Shown piece after piece: positions 3,185 to 36,491 of a stretch of DNA of 43,455 bases. The position numbers and the translations under genes are program-made. Location: NCBI GenBank assembly GCA_964608055.1, contig CAZSMJ010000004.1:1-43455 (forward strand), in the 5' to 3' direction. Numbering within the stretch: position 1 is the first letter of the stretch; every line of letters starts with the position of its first letter. The notes under the pieces are model-generated. The model saw only the letters and a list, made by a program, of their open reading frames with translations. It had not been told where the DNA came from and ran no database searches. Source of the stretch: an uncultured Acidimicrobiaceae bacterium (GTDB lineage Bacteria; Actinomycetota; Acidimicrobiia; Spongiisociales; ZC4RG35).

Positions 3185-4285
3185 TCAGTTTTCGGCATTT
3201 TCCAAGGCCGCGAAAACCATCGACCAGTGTTCTCGCGTCGGATCCAGCAAATCGAAATGACCGAGAGTGGGAAAGACCTCGAGGCGTGCAGTGTCGGCGA
3301 GGCGGGTGCTCTGAGAAACGGGCACCAGCTCGTCGTCCTCGCCATGCACCAGAAGCGTCGATGGCGGGGCCTCGAGAGTCGGGGGTGCTCCCGAAACAAG
3401 GAGCCGTTTCGCCTCGCTGCTGCCCGGGCCATCGGACGCAGCCAGCGCAGCGAGGTCGGTGACCGCGGCGAGACCGACCTTGAGCCCGACCGTCTCGGTG
3501 GGTGGCCGATTGGCGGCCCACAGCGCGAGATGACCGCCTGCCGAGTGCCCGATCACCGCCGGAGCGACCGTATCCACCTCGGGCGCCTTGCGGATGTAGT
3601 CGACGGCGAGCCTCACGTCTTGCCCCGACCCCGGCCAGCCGCCGCCTCCTCCCAGACGCCGATACTCGATGTTCCAGGTGGCCCAACCTCGCTTGGTCAG
3701 GTCGACAGCCAGCGTCTCCATGGAATCCCTCTCGTACTGCTGCCGCCAGAACCCGCCATGGACCAGGACCGCCAACCCTCGGATCCCCGACGAGGCGAGG
3801 CGGAGATCGCCGACATTGTCAGGGTGGGGCCCGTAGCGAAGCGTCTCGAAGGTCATCGTCGCCCGATTCACCAGATGTCGGATGGCATCCCGATACCCAC
3901 CGGTGCCACGTCCATAGATGGTGCGCACGCAGGCCGGCGCCACGAGTGAGACCGCTCGCCAGGATTCCCTTTCCATGACATTCGAGATGTGCACCTCGAC
4001 CGCGGGGGTGGCAACGGAGTGAAGGGCGTCGCCGAGTGCCCGGGAGGTGTGGGTGAGGGCACCCGCGTTGATGATGATCCCGTCAGCTCCGGCCGCCTGG
4101 TGAATGGCCTCCACTAGTTCACCTTCGTGGTTCGACTGGAGGAAGGAGGCCTCCACGCCGAGAGAACCTGCCCATTCTGAGATCTGGCGCTCCAAGTCCT
4201 CGAGCGTGGTCGACCCGTAGACCTCAGGCTCACGGCTCCCCAGCAGGTTCAGATTGGGGCCGTTGAGGACGACGACTCGCATCAT
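3185..4285 (-). CDS. aroQ: Type II 3-dehydroquinate dehydratase fused to a C-terminal alpha/beta-hydrolase
   Basis: N-terminus: LNGPNLNLLGSREPEVYG, QSNHEGELV, INAGALTHTS, EVHISN. C-terminus: HGGFW, NIEYRR, GHSAGG, HGEDD, GHFD. Confidence 0.88.
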   Translation of the reverse strand: MMRVVVLNGPNLNLLGSREPEVYGSTTLEDLERQISEWAGSLGVEASFLQSNHEGELVEAIHQAAGADGIIINAGALTHTSRALGDALHSVATPAVEVHISNVMERESWRAVSLVAPACVRTIYGRGTGGYRDAIRHLVNRATMTFETLRYGPHPDNVGDLRLASSGIRGLAVLVHGGFWRQQYERDSMETLAVDLTKRGWATWNIEYRRLGGGGGWPGSGQDVRLAVDYIRKAPEVDTVAPAVIGHSAGGHLALWAANRPPTETVGLKVGLAAVTDLAALAASDGPGSSEAKRLLVSGAPPTLEAPPSTLLVHGEDDELVPVSQSTRLADTARLEVFPTLGHFDLLDPTREHWSMVFAALENAEN

Positions 4286-10149: not shown

Positions 10150-11289
10150 GTGAGCCACCCCACCCCCGATCCAGCGCTCGCTCTTCGGTATCTCAGTGGT
10201 GAGATCCCCGATGAGGCCCTTTTCGCTGAGGCCCGCCAGCTTCGCGACCAGGCACACGGGCGAACCATTACCTACAGCCGCAAGGTTTTCATCCCACTGA
10301 CCACCCTGTGTCGGGATCGCTGCACCTATTGCACCTTTGCCAAGCCGCCAGGCGCCGGTGGCATGTACCTGGAGCCCGAGGAGGTGCTCGCGGTGGCTCG
10401 GGCCGGGGATGAGGCCGGGTGCACCGAGGCCCTCTTCACCCTTGGTGACCGGCCGGAGGATCGCTGGCCACAGGCGGTGGAGTTCCTTGCCGGCAAGGGT
10501 CTGGGGACCACCATCGAATACGTGGCCGAGATGTCGGCATTGGTCAGGTCGGAGACTTCGTTGTACCCCCATGCCAACCCCGGTCTGATGGGGGATCCTG
10601 AGATGAGGCTGCTGCGGCCCACCAATCCCTCGATGGGGCTCATGTTGGAAAACATCTCACCACGGCTGATGGAGCCCGGCATGCCCCATCACAACTGCCC
10701 CGACAAGGAACCTGCGCTCCGGGTGGCGACCATCGAGGCAGCCGGGAGGAACAAGGTCCCATTTACCACCGGGATCCTCGTCGGGATCGGTGAAACACCT
10801 CAGGAGATCGTCGACTCTTTGTTTGCGTTGCGTGAGCTCTCAGACCGGACCGGGGCGATTCAGGAAATCATCATCCAGAACTTCAGGGCCAAGGCCGACA
10901 CTCCGATGCGGTGGTCGGCCGAGCCGGTGCCCAGGTGGTTTGCCAGGGTCGTCGCCCTCGCGCGATGGGTCATGGGGGCCGAAGCCAACGTCCAGGTCCC
11001 GCCGAATCTCACCGAGCGATTCGAGATCTACCTCGACGCAGGGATCAACGACTGGGGCGGCGTGTCGCCCCTCACCATCGACTGGGTCAATCCCGAGGCT
11101 CCGTGGCCCCATCTCGACCAATTGCGGGCGCGGACCGAGGCTTCCGGGTTCTCGTTGCGCCCGAGACTTCCTGTCTACCCGGAGTTCATTACACGGGATT
11201 GGATCGATCCCGGCTTGTATGACAACGTTGTTGCCTCGTCCAATGACGACGGCCTAGCCCAAATCCCGGAACACGTCGGAGCGACATGA
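10150..11289 (+). CDS. cofG: FO synthase subunit CofG (radical SAM)
   Basis: ITYSRKVFIPLT, CRDRCTYC, PHANPG, SMGLMLE, PFTTGILVGIGE and AGINDWGGVSP. Confidence 0.93.
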   Translation: MSHPTPDPALALRYLSGEIPDEALFAEARQLRDQAHGRTITYSRKVFIPLTTLCRDRCTYCTFAKPPGAGGMYLEPEEVLAVARAGDEAGCTEALFTLGDRPEDRWPQAVEFLAGKGLGTTIEYVAEMSALVRSETSLYPHANPGLMGDPEMRLLRPTNPSMGLMLENISPRLMEPGMPHHNCPDKEPALRVATIEAAGRNKVPFTTGILVGIGETPQEIVDSLFALRELSDRTGAIQEIIIQNFRAKADTPMRWSAEPVPRWFARVVALARWVMGAEANVQVPPNLTERFEIYLDAGINDWGGVSPLTIDWVNPEAPWPHLDQLRARTEASGFSLRPRLPVYPEFITRDWIDPGLYDNVVASSNDDGLAQIPEHVGAT

Positions 11290-13184
11290 CCATCACCTTT
11301 CTGAGAGTGAGACCATCAGAGACCCTGGCCGCGGCGGCAGCCGAGAGTCGCCGTCGGGAAGGCACCACGACCGTCGAGCTCGTCGACCCGGGCGTCGAGG
11401 ACCTGGCCAATGCGGGTTCTGGAGGGGTGCTGATCACCGCAACCACGATCGGGGAAGTCGAGCCGGCGGCGTGGGTGGTTTCGCCTGACGACGCCTTGAC
11501 CCTTGCTGACCGGGGTGTGCCCGGGTGGCGGTTGAGTGTCACCGGGGACGGTGATCGGGAAGTGGTCCTCAACGGTCTGGCCCGGTCGCGGGCAGCATTC
11601 CTCAGGGCCACGCGCTCCACAGTCGAGGAGATGGCTCAGCTCGTGGCCCTGCCCGGGATCGAAGCCTCGGTGTCGGTGTTCGTCGACGACGTGGTCCAGG
11701 CGGTGAGGATGGTGGATCTGGGGGCAGGCGACCTCTTGTTGCGGGACTGGGACGTCGAGCGGATCGGGCAATTGCGGGATGCGCTCGGCGCTTCCCTGCT
11801 CATCGAGCGGACCGCGTTCCCTCCGGGGCTCGAAATCGACGAAGCGAGGGACCTCCTCCCTGCCGGGATCTTCACCACTTGGTTGAGCCAGGTCGACGGT
11901 TCCGGTGCGGTCCGACCCCGCCACACCTGGGCTCCCGGTAAGGACCAAGAGCCACCGGTCCCGGTGTTTCGGTTTTCCGCGGAGTGGATGGATCGCTCCT
12001 GGGTCACCGGCATCGCCCCGGAGGGGATCTCCGGCGCAGGGAGCCTGGCGCCGATTCTTCAGAGATCGCTCGACGGCCACCGGCCGACCACGTCCGAAGT
12101 TGAGAGCCTCTTTCGAGCCCGCGGCGACCAGGTCGATGCGATCGCCCACGTGGCCGATCGTCTGCGGGAACGAGCGGTGGGGGACACCGTCACCTACGTG
12201 GTCAACCGCAATATCAACTACACCAACCTGTGTTACTTCAAATGCGGGTTCTGCGCCTTCTCCAAAGGGCCGAAGAGCCTCAACCTGCGCGGGGAGCCCT
12301 ATTTGATGGGAATCGAGGAGATCGTCGGCAACGCTCGCGAGGCCTGGGAACGTGGCGCCACAGAGGTGACCCTCCAGGGTGGCATCCATCCCGATTTCAC
12401 GGGGAATTTCTACGTCGACGTCGTGCGATCGATCAAGGCGGAATTGCCCGACATGCACATCCATGGGTTCACCCCACTCGAGGTGTGGCAGGGGGCGCAC
12501 ACTCTTGGCGTCCCGGTTCGCCAGTTCCTCGAAGAATTGCAGCAAGCAGGCTTGGGGACCCTCCCCGGGACCGCCGCCGAGATCCTCGACGACGAGGTGA
12601 GGGCCCATCTCTGCCCGGACAAGATCCGGACCTCGCAATGGGCCGAGGTGATGATCACTGCGCATGAGCTCGGGCTCAGAGCGACCTCGACCATCATGTT
12701 CGGACACATCGACCACCCCCGCTCCTGGGCCAACCATCTCGAAGTCATCGCCCGCATCCAGCAGCGGACCGGCGGTTTCACCGAGATGGTCCCGCTGCCG
12801 TTCGTCCACATGGGCGCTCCCATCTTCCTGAGGGGACGGGCCCGCCCCGGGCCGACGTGGGATGAGGTGGTGCTGATCCATGCCGTCTCCAGAATCGCTC
12901 TCGACGGCCTCGTTCCCAACATCCAAGCCTCGTGGGTGAAGCTCGGGTTGGATGGAGGAGGGCGTTTGCTCGATGCCGGCTGCAACGACCTGGGGGGCAC
13001 CCTCATGGGTGAGATCATCACCAGGGCGGCGGGGGCGCAACATGGCCAAGAGGTGACACCACAGCAATTCCGCGAGGTGATCGAGGCCGCGGGACGCACA
13101 CCCGGTTTGCGCAACACCACCTATGAGATCCTGGAGTTGGAGCGGGGCCGAACTCAGCGCCAACCGAGCGCGGGGGCAACGTAG
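11286..13184 (+). CDS. cofH: FO synthase subunit CofH with ~250-aa N-terminal extension
   Basis: VTYVVNRNINYTN, CYFKCGFC, PGTAAEILDD, NIQASWVKLG and GCNDLGGTLM. ATGA overlap with cofG. Confidence 0.9.
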   Translation: MTITFLRVRPSETLAAAAAESRRREGTTTVELVDPGVEDLANAGSGGVLITATTIGEVEPAAWVVSPDDALTLADRGVPGWRLSVTGDGDREVVLNGLARSRAAFLRATRSTVEEMAQLVALPGIEASVSVFVDDVVQAVRMVDLGAGDLLLRDWDVERIGQLRDALGASLLIERTAFPPGLEIDEARDLLPAGIFTTWLSQVDGSGAVRPRHTWAPGKDQEPPVPVFRFSAEWMDRSWVTGIAPEGISGAGSLAPILQRSLDGHRPTTSEVESLFRARGDQVDAIAHVADRLRERAVGDTVTYVVNRNINYTNLCYFKCGFCAFSKGPKSLNLRGEPYLMGIEEIVGNAREAWERGATEVTLQGGIHPDFTGNFYVDVVRSIKAELPDMHIHGFTPLEVWQGAHTLGVPVRQFLEELQQAGLGTLPGTAAEILDDEVRAHLCPDKIRTSQWAEVMITAHELGLRATSTIMFGHIDHPRSWANHLEVIARIQQRTGGFTEMVPLPFVHMGAPIFLRGRARPGPTWDEVVLIHAVSRIALDGLVPNIQASWVKLGLDGGGRLLDAGCNDLGGTLMGEIITRAAGAQHGQEVTPQQFREVIEAAGRTPGLRNTTYEILELERGRTQRQPSAGAT

Positions 13185-19391: not shown

Positions 19392-20183
19392 CTAGAGAAG
19401 GCCGTGGTCTGCTGCAGCTTCGACGAAAGCTGCCGCTCTCAGCTGGTCGACACGGTTGGTTGCGTCGTTGTCGACCTTAACTCCCGAACCGACTATCACG
19501 GAATCTGCGAAGTCCATCAGTCGGGCGAGATTGGCCGCGTTCGCCCCCGATCCGACCACGACCCGAGTGCCCTTGGGAACCGCCGCGCGAACCTCTTTGC
19601 CCACATCGACCTCCGGCTCCTCGCCTGTTCCGGGACCGGAAACGATAACCGCGTCGGCGAGCCCGCGTTCGACGGTGTCCAAAGCCGCCTGTCGGGGATC
19701 GAGGCCCGGTGGTGGGGTGGCATGTTTGACCATGACATCGGCCCAGATCTCGATTTCCGGGGCCAATTCTCGGCGGCGACGCAGAAGCCGGGGCGCCCGG
19801 CCCACGATCGGGCCCTGGTCGGTGTACATGACGCCTGTGAGCACATTCACCCTGATGAACCTGGCGCCGGTGACCGCCGCGATCGCCAGGGCGGCCATAG
19901 CGTCATTGCGAAGGACATTGACACCTACGGGCAGGCTGGTGGCATCGATGACGGCTGCGATCGCCACGGTCATCGCCGCGATGGTCTCCGGCTCGACCAT
20001 GTCGGCCTGAAACGGGGCGTCACCGAAGTTCTCGACAAGCAATGCCGGGAAGCCGGCATCCTGGAGAGACCTGGCATCAGAGGCTGCGGCTTCCAGCACC
20101 TCTGCCATCGACCCTTTGAACCGTGGCGCTCCAGGAAGGGGAAGCAGATGGATCATCCCCACCAGGTGGGGAAGGCCACTCAC
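19392..20183 (-). CDS. BtpA/SgcQ family protein
   Basis: GMIHLLPLPGAP, VENFGDAPF, GVNVLRND, FIRVN and ADVMVKHA. GTG start overlaps the upstream TGA. Confidence 0.9.
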   Translation of the reverse strand: MSGLPHLVGMIHLLPLPGAPRFKGSMAEVLEAAASDARSLQDAGFPALLVENFGDAPFQADMVEPETIAAMTVAIAAVIDATSLPVGVNVLRNDAMAALAIAAVTGARFIRVNVLTGVMYTDQGPIVGRAPRLLRRRRELAPEIEIWADVMVKHATPPPGLDPRQAALDTVERGLADAVIVSGPGTGEEPEVDVGKEVRAAVPKGTRVVVGSGANAANLARLMDFADSVIVGSGVKVDNDATNRVDQLRAAAFVEAAADHGLL

Positions 20184-20911
20184 AAATAGGCCTTGGCTAC
20201 CTGGAGGGCTTTTCTGGCGTACTCGCCTTCGTACTTGAGACGGGTGGCTTCTGGTTTTGCTCTTCGGACGGCCACCCGTGCCCAATCCGAGGCTGAGCCT
20301 TTGATCACCTGGTTGGTCTCGGCGGGGCCATAAACCCATTTGGCATAACCGGGCCCGATCACCTCGACCCGGACCGGCTCGTAGTCCTCACCCGCATCCT
20401 TGAAGGCGTGAGGAAGGGTCTTCCATCCCAGCCAACAGACATGGCGAATCCGGGAGGTGTCCTCTACATCGAGGCCGAGAGTGGCGTAGATGTCGAGACC
20501 GTGGGCCCATGTTTCCATCAGGCGGAACGTCGCAAACGTGCGTGCGCTCATATCCCCGTCCATCCATTCGATCCTGGAGTCTGCGCCCATGTGGGACAGC
20601 GGCTCGACGACTTTTGCCCGACCTCCCCGCCACCATTCGATGACGTCCTGAGGTCTCATGCCACGACCCCGCTTGATCGCCTCTTTGCGCAGGCCATTGA
20701 GGTCGGAAGCATTGCGCCAACGTTGGATCATGTTGCCCCCGGCGATGGTGTCGGCGGCCAGTTCCTCGAAATCGGCGAGGTGGGAGATGGTGTCGCGCAC
20801 GGTCCACGGCTTGGAGGGGGTGACCATGTCCCAGATCTTGATCGGGATCCTCTGCAGGGACTGATCCAGGAACTGCTGCTCGGCTACCAGGTCGGAGAGG
20901 ATGTCGCGCAC
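20180..20911 (-). CDS. Mycothiol-dependent maleylpyruvate isomerase family (DinB-fold) metal-binding protein
   Basis: WTVRDTISHLA, RLMETWAHGLDI and RIRHVCWLG. Confidence 0.85.
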   Translation of the reverse strand: MRDILSDLVAEQQFLDQSLQRIPIKIWDMVTPSKPWTVRDTISHLADFEELAADTIAGGNMIQRWRNASDLNGLRKEAIKRGRGMRPQDVIEWWRGGRAKVVEPLSHMGADSRIEWMDGDMSARTFATFRLMETWAHGLDIYATLGLDVEDTSRIRHVCWLGWKTLPHAFKDAGEDYEPVRVEVIGPGYAKWVYGPAETNQVIKGSASDWARVAVRRAKPEATRLKYEGEYARKALQVAKAYL

Positions 20912-22151: not shown

Positions 22152-23141
22152 TCAGAATGGGCTGACCGACGGGCCCTTTCTGACCACAGCATTCCACACT
22201 GTCTCGTAGTGGTCCCGGTCGAATTGGTCGACATGAGGGAGCACATACTCCTCCCAGGTGTTTCGCAAGGGGTCCGAGCCATCCCGATAGACGATGAGAC
22301 CGGTGGGAATCCGGTCGAGGATCGAGCGCAGTGAAAGCGGTGTCTCTACCCGCACCCCGGTGTCTTGAGCCTCGAAGGATGCGTTGACTTCGACCGCCAG
22401 CCTGGCGATCGCCTCCACGTATTCCGTCTTCAACTCGGGGTAGCGGCGGGTCAGCATCGCCTCGACCTGCTCACTTCCGGGGAAGCTCTTCTCCCAGATC
22501 ACCCAGCGGTCGGCGAAGGCCTTGTTCAGGGTTTGGGTGCCGGCGTAATCGCGGAGATCTGTGGGGTTCATCGTGCCAAAGATGCGGACATCGTCACGAA
22601 GGGCGACGGTCTCACCATGAGGGAGGTCGAGGGCGGCATAACGGTCGAGAAGCCCGTGCAGCGCAAACAGAGTCTCGGCGCCGGCGGCATTGAGCTCGGA
22701 CAGGTTCAGAAGGGAGGGCCCGCGCAAGGCTCGCGTGATGTCTCCGTCCTCCCAACGACTCTCGGTGCCTCCCTTGCCGTCGCCGTGGAGGCGGGTCGAT
22801 CCGATAAGGGTCACATCGCGGACCTCGCCGGTGAGTGGGATCCGGAAGTAGGGGAGCCCCATCGCGGCCGCGAACTGCTCGATGTCGTGGTCCTTGCCGG
22901 TCCCCATATGGCCGCGGACGGCCACGTGGAGCGGCACCAGCCCGGGCGCACCAGAGCGCCTCGCCTGTTCGATCTGGGCGAACCGATAGAGCATCCCCAG
23001 GTCGACGTAGTAGGGATCGGGCTCGGGGATCTTCCGGATCCGCAGGTCCCGGTCCTCGAGGTTCTTGGGCACCGCGAATCGGGCCAACTCGATAGTTGGG
23101 CCCTCCCCGATTGGATCGTGGAAGATTGCTGTTTCAGGCAA
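22152..23141 (-). CDS. MoxR/CobS-like AAA+ ATPase with non-canonical Walker motifs
   Basis: GHMGTGKD (Walker A), WEDGDITRA, LLNLSELN (Walker B position) and GTMNP...YAGTQTLNKAFADRW (sensor 1 and Arg finger). Confidence 0.88.
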   Translation of the reverse strand: MPETAIFHDPIGEGPTIELARFAVPKNLEDRDLRIRKIPEPDPYYVDLGMLYRFAQIEQARRSGAPGLVPLHVAVRGHMGTGKDHDIEQFAAAMGLPYFRIPLTGEVRDVTLIGSTRLHGDGKGGTESRWEDGDITRALRGPSLLNLSELNAAGAETLFALHGLLDRYAALDLPHGETVALRDDVRIFGTMNPTDLRDYAGTQTLNKAFADRWVIWEKSFPGSEQVEAMLTRRYPELKTEYVEAIARLAVEVNASFEAQDTGVRVETPLSLRSILDRIPTGLIVYRDGSDPLRNTWEEYVLPHVDQFDRDHYETVWNAVVRKGPSVSPF

Positions 23142-25224
23142 TGGATCTCTCCTGTTTGGTTCGGTATTGGGAAGGGCGCAGCCACCAGGTGTCCATGCCC
23201 CACAAGGCGAGACTCCGGCGCAGAGCGCTCCGTGTCCCGTCGATCATGGCCTGGGCCAGGCCCTCGGGCTGTTCCACGACTTCGTGACGGCGATAGGCCA
23301 GGTCGACGGTGTGATCGCCGATTCCCAGCCCGATGACGGTGGTCCCCCCACCCTCGACGGCCGCAACCGACCTGGCGAGAGCTTCGACTGATCCGCGAGT
23401 CATCCCATCGGCCAGCACCATCAAGACCCTGACCTCGGCGCCGAGGCGAGCCATGCGCTCTGCAGCATGGATCACGTTGAATTCGTCCACGTTGGCTGCC
23501 TTCTCGAAGAGCGACACCGGAGGGGAAGTCCTGGGATCACGCCGGGCCAGCGTGGCGGCCGCCCGCGGCTCGGCGGCGGTGTAGAAGAGACCGGCGAGGG
23601 CCGGCTCGGCGTCCCGCCACCGGCGCTCGAAGGGCTTGACCAGATAGTGATTGACCGTCAAGGTGAGCCGGTCGGCGGCGGTGCCGTGGGTCTGCTTGAG
23701 CCCAGCCGCGGCGGACGAGCGTTTGTGGCGGTAGGTGTGCTCGGAGTCGTCGGGAGCGGCGGCGAAGCCACGGTTGAAGAGGGCCACTTCGAAGTCGATC
23801 TGGAGCTCCTCGCAGAGATGGGCCATCGTCCAGGCCCCGAGAAGGGCGGCCGGCATCGCCCAGGACGATTGGGACCCGGGGTTCCGTCTTGGGCTGAGCA
23901 TGGATGCCGAGGCATCGACGAGCAGGGAAACCGCGTACTCGCGTCTGGTTCGCACCGCCCGTCGCTCGTAGAGCCGCTGATAGAGACCGGCGCCGATGAA
24001 GAGGGCGGCATGGGGCGACACGTCTCCCTGGTCATAGCCCGATCTGAGGCCGCGGCGCTGATTGGCGGTGAACAGGGGGAAGAGCTCACCGGACACCCTT
24101 CGTTGCGCGACATTCCATCGTCGCGAGGCGGAGCGAAGCGACGCCAGCCCCTCCTCTGAGAAGCGGGCGAAGCTGGTTGGTATCGGGGTGACCACGACCT
24201 TCCCTCCTTGTCCGGTGGGGAGGAAGACATCGGGTGCCTGGCTCACCCGGAGCAATTGGTCGGTCGAGTCCTCACCGGCGATGTCCGAGGCGCCACGGCG
24301 ATCCGAGAGTGCGGAGCGGGCCTCGGCCGACCGCCTGGTGTCTTGGTATGAATCGGCGTCGGCGAGGATCGGTGTGGTCAACCGCACCGTATCCACTCCG
24401 TCGCGGGCCTTCTCGGCATCGGCCTCGGCGGCGATCTGGCGTTTGGCATGGGTATCGTTGGCCTGGACCTCTTTGATGAGACCGTTTGCCCTGGCGATTG
24501 CCTCCAGCTCCAGGGCGAGCTGGGCGACCTCCCAGGGGTCCCCGGCCTCGGCGGCCATCTCGCAGTGACCCGAACCATCATCGAGGGCCATGGCGGCGTT
24601 GGCCTCGAACCTTTTCTCCAGGACGTCACGCTCCACATAGCCGCCGGTGAGGAGGAAGCACCCGAGCACGAACTGGCTGAGAGCGCCGGAGCGAGAGATC
24701 GCCTGCGCCAGTGAGGACATGTAGAGGTCGGCGAGCACCGAGCGCGCGCCGGGGTAGACCGAGAGCCCCTGACGTTCCTGACGAGCGTCTTCGAGGGAGA
24801 AGAAGAGGACCTCGGCGACGGGGCGGTTGGTCCTCTCCAGCGCGGTGAGAAGGTCGACGGGCCCCTCCGGCGGATTCTCCAGGTCGATCGGCCAGCTCTC
24901 CGGGACCTCACGGGTCTCATCGAGATTCGTGGTCACCAGATGCATGACTTCGTGTAGCGCGGACGCCAGTGCGACCTCGTCGGGAGTCACCGGAGCATTG
25001 CGGGTGTAAGCAGCCTGGAAGATCCGGGGGTCACAAACCACCTCATCATCTGACGCCGCCGCCTCGGAGCCGAGCCGGACCCGGAGATTCGGGTTCTTAG
25101 CCAGCGTTCTGGCGAACCTGGTCACCGCCGGCGCCACTCTCTGATACCGGCTGACGACAGCCTCGATCGCCCGTTCCTCGGGGGCGATCAGATCGGAGAG
25201 AAACGTCTGTTCGCGTCCACGCAT
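23134..25224 (-). CDS. CobT/NorD-like protein: N-terminal HExxH domain plus C-terminal vWA domain
   Basis: LHEVMH...LEDARQE, MIDAS LLVDASASM, ANVDE, LMVLADG and IGLGIG. Overlaps the start of the AAA gene. Confidence 0.85.
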   Translation of the reverse strand: MRGREQTFLSDLIAPEERAIEAVVSRYQRVAPAVTRFARTLAKNPNLRVRLGSEAAASDDEVVCDPRIFQAAYTRNAPVTPDEVALASALHEVMHLVTTNLDETREVPESWPIDLENPPEGPVDLLTALERTNRPVAEVLFFSLEDARQERQGLSVYPGARSVLADLYMSSLAQAISRSGALSQFVLGCFLLTGGYVERDVLEKRFEANAAMALDDGSGHCEMAAEAGDPWEVAQLALELEAIARANGLIKEVQANDTHAKRQIAAEADAEKARDGVDTVRLTTPILADADSYQDTRRSAEARSALSDRRGASDIAGEDSTDQLLRVSQAPDVFLPTGQGGKVVVTPIPTSFARFSEEGLASLRSASRRWNVAQRRVSGELFPLFTANQRRGLRSGYDQGDVSPHAALFIGAGLYQRLYERRAVRTRREYAVSLLVDASASMLSPRRNPGSQSSWAMPAALLGAWTMAHLCEELQIDFEVALFNRGFAAAPDDSEHTYRHKRSSAAAGLKQTHGTAADRLTLTVNHYLVKPFERRWRDAEPALAGLFYTAAEPRAAATLARRDPRTSPPVSLFEKAANVDEFNVIHAAERMARLGAEVRVLMVLADGMTRGSVEALARSVAAVEGGGTTVIGLGIGDHTVDLAYRRHEVVEQPEGLAQAMIDGTRSALRRSLALWGMDTWWLRPSQYRTKQERSIA

Positions 25225-35881: not shown

Positions 35882-36491
35882 CTACGGCGGGTCGAACCTT
35901 GCGATCACATCAGCGAAAGTCTCCAGGCTTGCTCGCTGTTGGCGAGATTGACTATGGAATGGGTAGCGCCGGCGTGGTGATAGGACTCGAACAGACTCAC
36001 CAGGTCGTCCACTGTGCCTGCGTTGTTGCGCGCTGAGTACTCGTCCGCCGACTGATCGCGTCCCCGAGCCTGGTCGACCCTCTCGGCGAGGTCTTTGCGA
36101 TCACGGCCAACCATCACCGTGAGGAGATGGGTGGCCTCGATCTCTGCGGGGTCACGTCCGACGTCTGAGCAGTGCTGGCGCAAGATCTCCAGCTTGCGGG
36201 ATACGGTTTCGGGTGTGCCGAAGAGACTGCAGGCGTCTGCGCGCCGGCAACGAGCGCGAGGGTCTTGCGCTCTCCGGAGCCGCCGATCGTGATCGGGATC
36301 CGTCGCTCCAGGATGTCGAAGGCGGCCGGACTGGCGCGTTGGTCGTCCTCGCCGCTGCCGACAAGGGCTCGGAGCCGGTCCGAGGAGACGATTTCATCTG
36401 CCCGGAAGTGGTCCTGCGCCCAAGTCGTCTTGCCCGAACCGGACGGTCCGACCAACACGACAAGGCTCGGGGCGGGGAGACGAAGCTCCAT
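35882..36491 (-). pseudogene. Degraded P-loop kinase (AAA_33-like) / LLM oxidoreductase fusion gene
   Basis: LVGPSGSGKT...VSSDRLR joins directly to the LLM C-terminal IPITIGGSGERKTL (large internal deletion near 36300). Frameshift near 36245 (to ADACSLFG) and another near 35930 (to SLETFADVIARFDPP*). Confidence 0.75.

Follow-up and report, generated by a model that had tools for sequence, protein, structure and literature searches.

The described systems closest to the locus studied here are AAA+ motors accompanied by an adaptor with a vWA domain. CobS/CobT (PDB 9ujv series) and the phage CobS-like proteins of phrog_249 share with our AAA+ protein the AAA_5 family and inserts in helix 2 and before sensor 1; CobS/CobT also has an adjacent vWA partner with a MIDAS, whose N-terminal domain sits on the small AAA+ domain, an arrangement likewise predicted for the pair studied here. 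The available portions of two reports describe such docking on the motor lid for CobT (bioRxiv 10.64898/2026.10.09.757910) and for NorD (PMC13036017), the latter also giving a turnover of 13 per min per hexamer for NorQ. CbbQ/CbbO and NorQ/NorD (PDB 6l1q and 9qh4-9qh9) are the best structural matches, and the vWA partner of our protein folds like NorD. However, our protein is ~20% identical to CbbQ and NorQ and differs from both in the exchange of two Walker residues that is the subject of this work.

The two residues are the Ser/Thr that follows the Walker A lysine (position K+1) and the Walker B Asp, and the reason for their near-invariance is still argued. The accessible part of one recent paper describes the pair as strictly conserved, and proposes that the Ser/Thr forms an alkoxide base with the Asp as proton trap; the variants given there, with Gly or Asn at K+1 or with Glu, Asn or Thr in Walker B, are natural losses of one member of the pair, and none of those seen in that part moves the carboxylate to K+1 (PMC9599734). 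The enhancer-binding protein PspF, an active AAA+ protein with an acidic K+1 residue, is a precedent: in the part of that study available, it has Glu at K+1, described as contacting the next subunit, and requires a normal Walker B Asp, and its E43D form retains ~56% of Vmax (22.3 versus 39.5 per min; PMC3419264). An AAA+ protein can thus still catalyse with Asp at K+1, as the roughly half-maximal activity of E43D shows. A sequence-only reading of our locus had called the Ser/Thr-Asp pair near-universal in P-loop NTPases, which goes too far, as the Walker B of PspF is normal although its K+1 residue is Glu. The protein described here differs from PspF in turn, having Asp at K+1 and no Walker B Asp.

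The AAA+ gene lies on the minus strand at 22152-23141 of the window (the whole stretch of DNA analysed, 43,455 nucleotides). Its translation is free of stop codons, starts at TTG, runs to 329 residues and overlaps the upstream gene by 8 bases. The product matches Pfam AAA_5 (E=1e-12) and belongs to the MoxR clade (clade 7), where it is CobS/CbbQ/NorQ-like; a sequence comparison with the PDB gave matches to midasin, CobS, NorQ and CbbQ. The predicted model (pLDDT 91.5) has CbbQ 6l1q as its best fold match (Z 24.4, rmsd 2.4, 263 aligned residues) with NorQ also found, the CbbQ and NorQ matches together covering Z 21-24 over 227-263 residues and the next family Z 17; CobS structures were missing from both fold result lists, which is no evidence of a difference in fold. 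The clade 7 core is present in the model as a helix-2 insert (residues 114-132) and a pre-sensor-1 hairpin (residues 170-180). The former, at 22746-22802 (minus strand), is a highly conserved beta-hairpin with modelled strands at 114-120 and 126-132. The protein is predicted to form a homo-hexamer.

The canonical P-loop pair is absent from this protein. Walker A reads GHMGTGKD (G77-D84; 22890-22913, minus strand), with Asp84 in place of Ser/Thr at K+1, and Walker B reads LLNLSE (L144-E149; 22695-22712, minus strand), with Ser148 in place of Asp, the catalytic Glu149 retained and Asn146 at a normally hydrophobic place. The codons reported by the earlier reading are there on the minus strand, i.e. 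GGC AAG GAC at 22898-22890 and TCC GAG at 22700-22695, and its statement that Lys83, Glu149, the sensor-1 Asn (GTMNP) and the arginine finger (ADRW) are intact also held; the sensor-2 Arg272 (SLR) is intact as well. These five residues are invariant in 121/121 coding sequences. In addition, Asn192 (22566-22568) and Arg212 (22506-22508) are invariant in the relatives as well as in the family, and Arg272 (22326-22328), all three on the minus strand, is matched by Arg in 77/80 viral relatives. The register is secured by the alignment of K83/D84 and S148/E149 with the GK[TS] and DE of the midasin modules and of 149 canonical relatives.

Both exchanged motifs are found together in all 121 of the top homologues, the co-occurrence that had been proposed as a check: GKD and NLSE are jointly fixed in 121 distinct coding sequences of 57-100% identity, with Asp84 encoded by GAC in 100 and GAT in 21, and Ser148 by TCN in 120 and AGC in one. 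In a second study, one contig extends over 22152-23133 and differs from our sequence at nine places, none of them within the Asp84 or Ser148 codons. Sequencing error and a pseudogene are ruled out by this contig, by the 121/121 homologues and by the synonymous codon variation. The swapped feature is real and conserved.

We found the AAA+ gene in 284/301 genomes of the order and in 211/213 of those of high quality, tallies in which one unpublished genome (G411) counts as a single row. A pattern search recovered the two motifs jointly in 280/284 gene-positive genomes, the other four being weak and probably partial hits. In a sample of the class, the gene was present in 62/62 genomes of the order, in 54/60 of one family with ~1.1-Mb genomes and in 0/129 others. 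The motor is conserved in these two lineages, both of them uncultured actinobacteria. It is a core, essentially single-copy gene, and with dN/dS of 0.03-0.06 (four pairs) it is under purifying selection. The loci taken from the ~1.1-Mb-genome family have 31-34% GC, and identity there is 57-61% for the ATPase and 26-28% for the adaptor. Retention of the motor-adaptor pair in such small genomes points to a client of basic importance, and the swapped feature is probably functional. A total of 120/329 positions are invariant in the family, so that invariance by itself discriminates weakly.

The relatives do not carry the exchange. Among 74 bacterial relatives the residues at K+1 and in Walker B are T/EE in 59, T/DE in 10, S/EE in two and T/EQ in one, with two incomplete, and the best 80 of 116 viral relatives all have GKT and DE; the phage CobS-like proteins are thus unswapped. 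One related AAA+ family (L023:1288-2253, L024:1240-2202; P0272-P0329), some members of which carry the label Thermoleophilia in their source records, shows EE in Walker B and Gly for the sensor-2 Arg (STG); an ORF near the first of these loci resembles, judged by eye, a methylcobamide methyltransferase.

On a quick tree the swapped family forms one clade with support of 100 and a stem of 2.29 substitutions per column, along which none of the other five catalytic residues has departed from its canonical type; on this tree the swap is a single event within the family. No fewer than 11 further changes restricted to the family, located close to the motifs or in the lid, accompany the swap. Residues fixed solely in the family, i.e. 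in 49/49 family rows and 0/149 relatives, include M79, D86, P102, R108, D109, T111 and N146, and further K207, K218, N253 and L271. Pro102 (22836-22838, minus strand) stands at what we take to be the glutamate-switch position, which is Asn in 139/149 relatives. Asp86 (K+3; 22884-22886, minus strand), mostly Leu in relatives, may pair with the family-only Lys218 (22488-22490). The suggestion that the two Walker changes are a compensatory inversion rather than decay is therefore borne out as far as decay is concerned, by the core status of the gene, the purifying selection and the invariant catalytic residues; however, a single swap on a long branch with nearby changes means that the AAA+ family alone cannot prove compensation.

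For compensation, strong support came from phage terminases, which belong to the ASCE division according to the part of a study available (bioRxiv 10.1101/2020.12.01.406595). Terminases matching Terminase_6N and phrog_2 are likewise ASCE P-loop ATPases and carry this exchange at the two equivalent positions, but they are packaging ATPases with a nuclease, their origin is independent and the range of residues is wider. We scanned viral loci with one Walker A context, which we took to be that of these terminases, allowing K+1 to be D, T, E or S, the last restricted to TCN codons. At least 325 loci were obtained, of which 320 were in frame and 230 reached Walker B, giving 221 distinct sequences among the matches listed. 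In these, the swapped pairs were D/SE (73), D/TE (1), E/SE (52), E/TE (17) and E/AE (5), and the canonical pairs T/DE (67) and S/DE (6). An acidic K+1 residue was accompanied by Walker B Ser, Thr or Ala in 148/148 cases and a Ser/Thr K+1 residue by Asp in 73/73, so that exactly one carboxylate was present in the pair in 221/221 of the terminases listed, and no mixed state was found among them. The register agrees with that of the solved P74-26 terminase (4zni).

The GK[DE]/[STA]E group comprises viral loci L390-L469 and L605-L684 together with isolated phages (L583:1543-2904, L584-L589, L591 and L592). GKD with SE was present in 9/10 isolated phages chosen from the top hits, namely ZP6, phiAX1, BUCT708, ZCVPP1, BUCT555, RHph_I3_18, Mx9, ppBjS10J-1 and Vibrio 1.257.O, the tenth, HTVC010P, having GKT and DE. 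In Alteromonas phage ZP6, a single large terminase is annotated in a set of 47 genes, located between the small terminase and the portal. DNA packaging requires ATP hydrolysis, so terminases in the swapped state very probably are capable of catalysis.

Three coupled changes were required on all of the terminase trees, and these could be one gain followed by two reversions. A single swapped clade was not rejected (AU p 0.37, with 54/141 rows swapped), so the independent terminase events may number one, and one apparent revertant sits at a long-branch join. At K+1, D and E interchange often on the tree. A second terminase family of 610 residues (L280:78-1901 and related loci; P0343-P0462), which matches phrog_2 only and has no Pfam hit, carries GKD with NE in 119/120 homologues, and three isolated relatives of it have [GA]KS and DE, in a register that we set by eye (VWFNE against IYIDE) since the aligner was offset by one column. 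This family surfaced by accident in two viral scans for a Lon-like swapped protein, in which 108 loci were obtained and none of 50 in-frame matches was Lon-like; these scans neither confirm nor refute a swap of the Lon type.

Taken with the terminases, the AAA+ protein is quite probably an active ATPase in which the carboxylate has been relocated from Walker B to Walker A. The rule of the pair looks, from the residue combinations, like one carboxylate rather than a strict reciprocal hydrogen bond, since the five E/AE terminases indicate that a Walker B hydroxyl is not strictly needed; PspF keeps two carboxylates (GKE and DE), so the rule is not general. In the swapped site, Asp84 would take over from the Ser/Thr hydroxyl as a direct Mg2+ ligand, and Ser148 would make room for it and hydrogen-bond either Asp84 or a metal-bound water. 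The net charge of the residue pair would be unchanged by the swap, Glu149 would remain the catalytic base, and the pair could be seen as a module with a single carboxylate, whose two states can replace each other.

One alternative is that the protein binds nucleotide and hydrolyses it very slowly or never, its role towards the adaptor being that of a switch or a scaffold. Very low activity is reported for Torsin A and DnaC, which have Asn at K+1, in the accessible part of PMC9599734, and in that of PMC3419264 PspF is inactivated when its Walker B Asp is removed (D107A, 0.23 per min); the loss of the usual Asn at position 102 points in the same direction. However, Glu149, Asn192, Arg212 and Arg272 are all invariant, the same swapped state occurs in the packaging motors of isolated phages, and no close canonical paralogue that could power a mixed ring was found, the 12 other parseable AAA+ loci of the same genome having GKT and DE. 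We regard a slow or dead switch as unlikely.

Next in plausibility, and also improbable, is an active enzyme in which the two changes do not compensate each other, i.e. Asp84 is tolerated by itself and the lost Walker B Asp is covered by Asn146, Asp109, Asp86 and Pro102. This would account for the broad remodelling of the site and its single origin, and it finds precedents in the tolerated E43D change of PspF (PMC3419264), in MglA, which borrows an Asp from a neighbouring strand (PMC9599734; both sources in the part available), and in relatives that already vary at Walker B (T/EE in 59/74). Against it, mixed states are strictly excluded in the 221 terminases listed, and GKD with [DE]E is absent among the 74 bacterial and the best 80 of 116 viral relatives; one metagenome scan for this combination, which had no positive control, returned a single chance match riddled with stops and no intact sequence. 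That the rewiring alters the choice of cofactor or substrate (Mn2+, Co2+, Ca2+ or GTP), or makes a metal-bound water dispensable, is very improbable: a carboxylate as direct ligand could shift metal affinity, and the relatives include metal-inserting motors, but the altered metal or nucleotide preference suggested by the earlier reading found no support, the terminase parallel and the D/E interchange fit a neutral alternative state better and CobN was not found in the five genomes searched.

Returning to the active ATPase with a relocated carboxylate, we lean slightly towards the wider proposal that the Mg site of ASCE P-loop ATPases exists in a second design that works fully, with a carboxylate at K+1 and Ser, Thr, Ala or Asn in Walker B. 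This design would have arisen independently in the AAA+ family and in two or more groups of terminases, may be open to reversal, and would rule out the Ser/Thr alkoxide as a universal base. An Asp at K+1 cannot form such an alkoxide, and in terminases with the Glu/Ala combination neither residue of the pair carries a hydroxyl. If the swapped enzymes are active, the pair would be needed for charge and metal geometry and not for an alkoxide relay. The AAA+ family and the terminases thus offer a natural test of the role of two near-universal residues. Annotation based on motifs would call the swapped proteins dead, including the packaging motors of isolated phages. We found no description of the swap in the AAA+ family or in terminases in the literature covered; a 2020 survey of Walker B motifs and a 2004 paper, which is said to deal with deviant Walker A motifs of terminases, were outside that scope, and a prior description, above all in terminases, is not excluded.

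The upstream gene (23134-25224, minus strand) encodes a CobT/NorD-like adaptor of 696 residues, with a helical N-terminal domain that contains an HExxH motif and a C-terminal vWA domain, so that the AAA+/adaptor pair shows the adjacent vWA partner with a MIDAS that is taken as a criterion for MoxR systems. It was found upstream of the AAA+ gene in 96/99 loci, with the three misses at contig ends. The MIDAS motif DxSxS (D437-S441; 23902-23916, minus strand) is retained in 89/89 sequences, as is the distal Asp606, at 23407-23409. The HExxH (H91-H95; 24940-24954, minus strand) is likewise retained in 89/89, and distinguishes this adaptor from that of CobS/CobT. The modelled fold resembles the MIDAS domain of MDN1 (midasin) and the vWA domain of NorD; the sequence gave weak hits to CobT-type PHROGs, and no match in Pfam or NCBIfam.

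Complex prediction placed the N-terminal domain of the adaptor on the AAA+ lid with a score of 0.88, against 0.00 for the best control. The mark used for this score is reached by 116/157 solved pairs and 2/215 mismatched pairs. Predicted contacts involve residues 29-45, 82-90 and 156-163 of the adaptor and 247-264 and 310-322 of the AAA+ lid; at least 98% of the contacts are shared between runs, and the pLDDT of the partner is 89. However, complexes of CobT and NorD dock alike and are solved, so passing the mark may reflect likeness to them. The motor would bind and hydrolyse Mg-ATP and work through the neighbouring vWA adaptor, whose N-terminal domain is predicted to dock on the lid as in CobST and NorQD and whose vWA domain is predicted to be turned within the pore of the motor.

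The HExxH of the adaptor does not vary even where overall identity falls to 27%, and it adjoins the predicted docking surface at residues 82-90. With regard to the third zinc ligand that a zincin-like metalloprotease would have, a downstream EDARxE motif is present in 80/89 sequences, and E150 is its only invariant residue.

A role as the motor of a cobalt chelatase was ruled out, the protein scoring 46.3 bits with TIGR01650 against a cut-off of 558.55 and CobN not being found. The search for CobN was negative in 5/5 genomes that are 87-99% complete, with a control that matched in 5/14 reference genomes; the part of PMC12008989 available reports cobS among the genes of some sponge-associated members. 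With respect to CbbQ and NorQ, no rubisco or nitric oxide reductase gene was found among the 51 ORFs of the window scanned with Pfam.

Recurring neighbours of the pair are an M16 peptidase, a LOG family protein, a BtpA family protein and an HD domain protein. The LOG gene was rejected as an obligate third part, as it is present in 87/99 loci but in 0/8 small-genome loci. A BtpA/SgcQ-family gene, at 19392-20339 of the window (minus strand), lies ~2.5-5.7 kb downstream in 77/99 loci, among them 8/8 small-genome loci, and on this co-occurrence is a weak candidate for a functional link. In the small-genome loci (L148-L155) dapA lies 2.8 kb and ftsK 3.7 kb from the pair, and both genes are retained in the window at a distance of ~13-16 kb, which makes the chromosomal neighbourhood an old one.

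Three further features of the window lie outside the pair. At 3185-4285 (minus strand) a type II dehydroquinase is fused in frame with an alpha/beta hydrolase domain. A short AAA_33 kinase-like ORF at 36114-36491 (minus strand), in which the family match stops at residue 64, looks truncated or frameshifted. Finally, 10150-13184 (plus strand) contains two CofG/CofH-type radical SAM genes, the second of which has an additional N-terminal region of ~280 residues without a Pfam hit.
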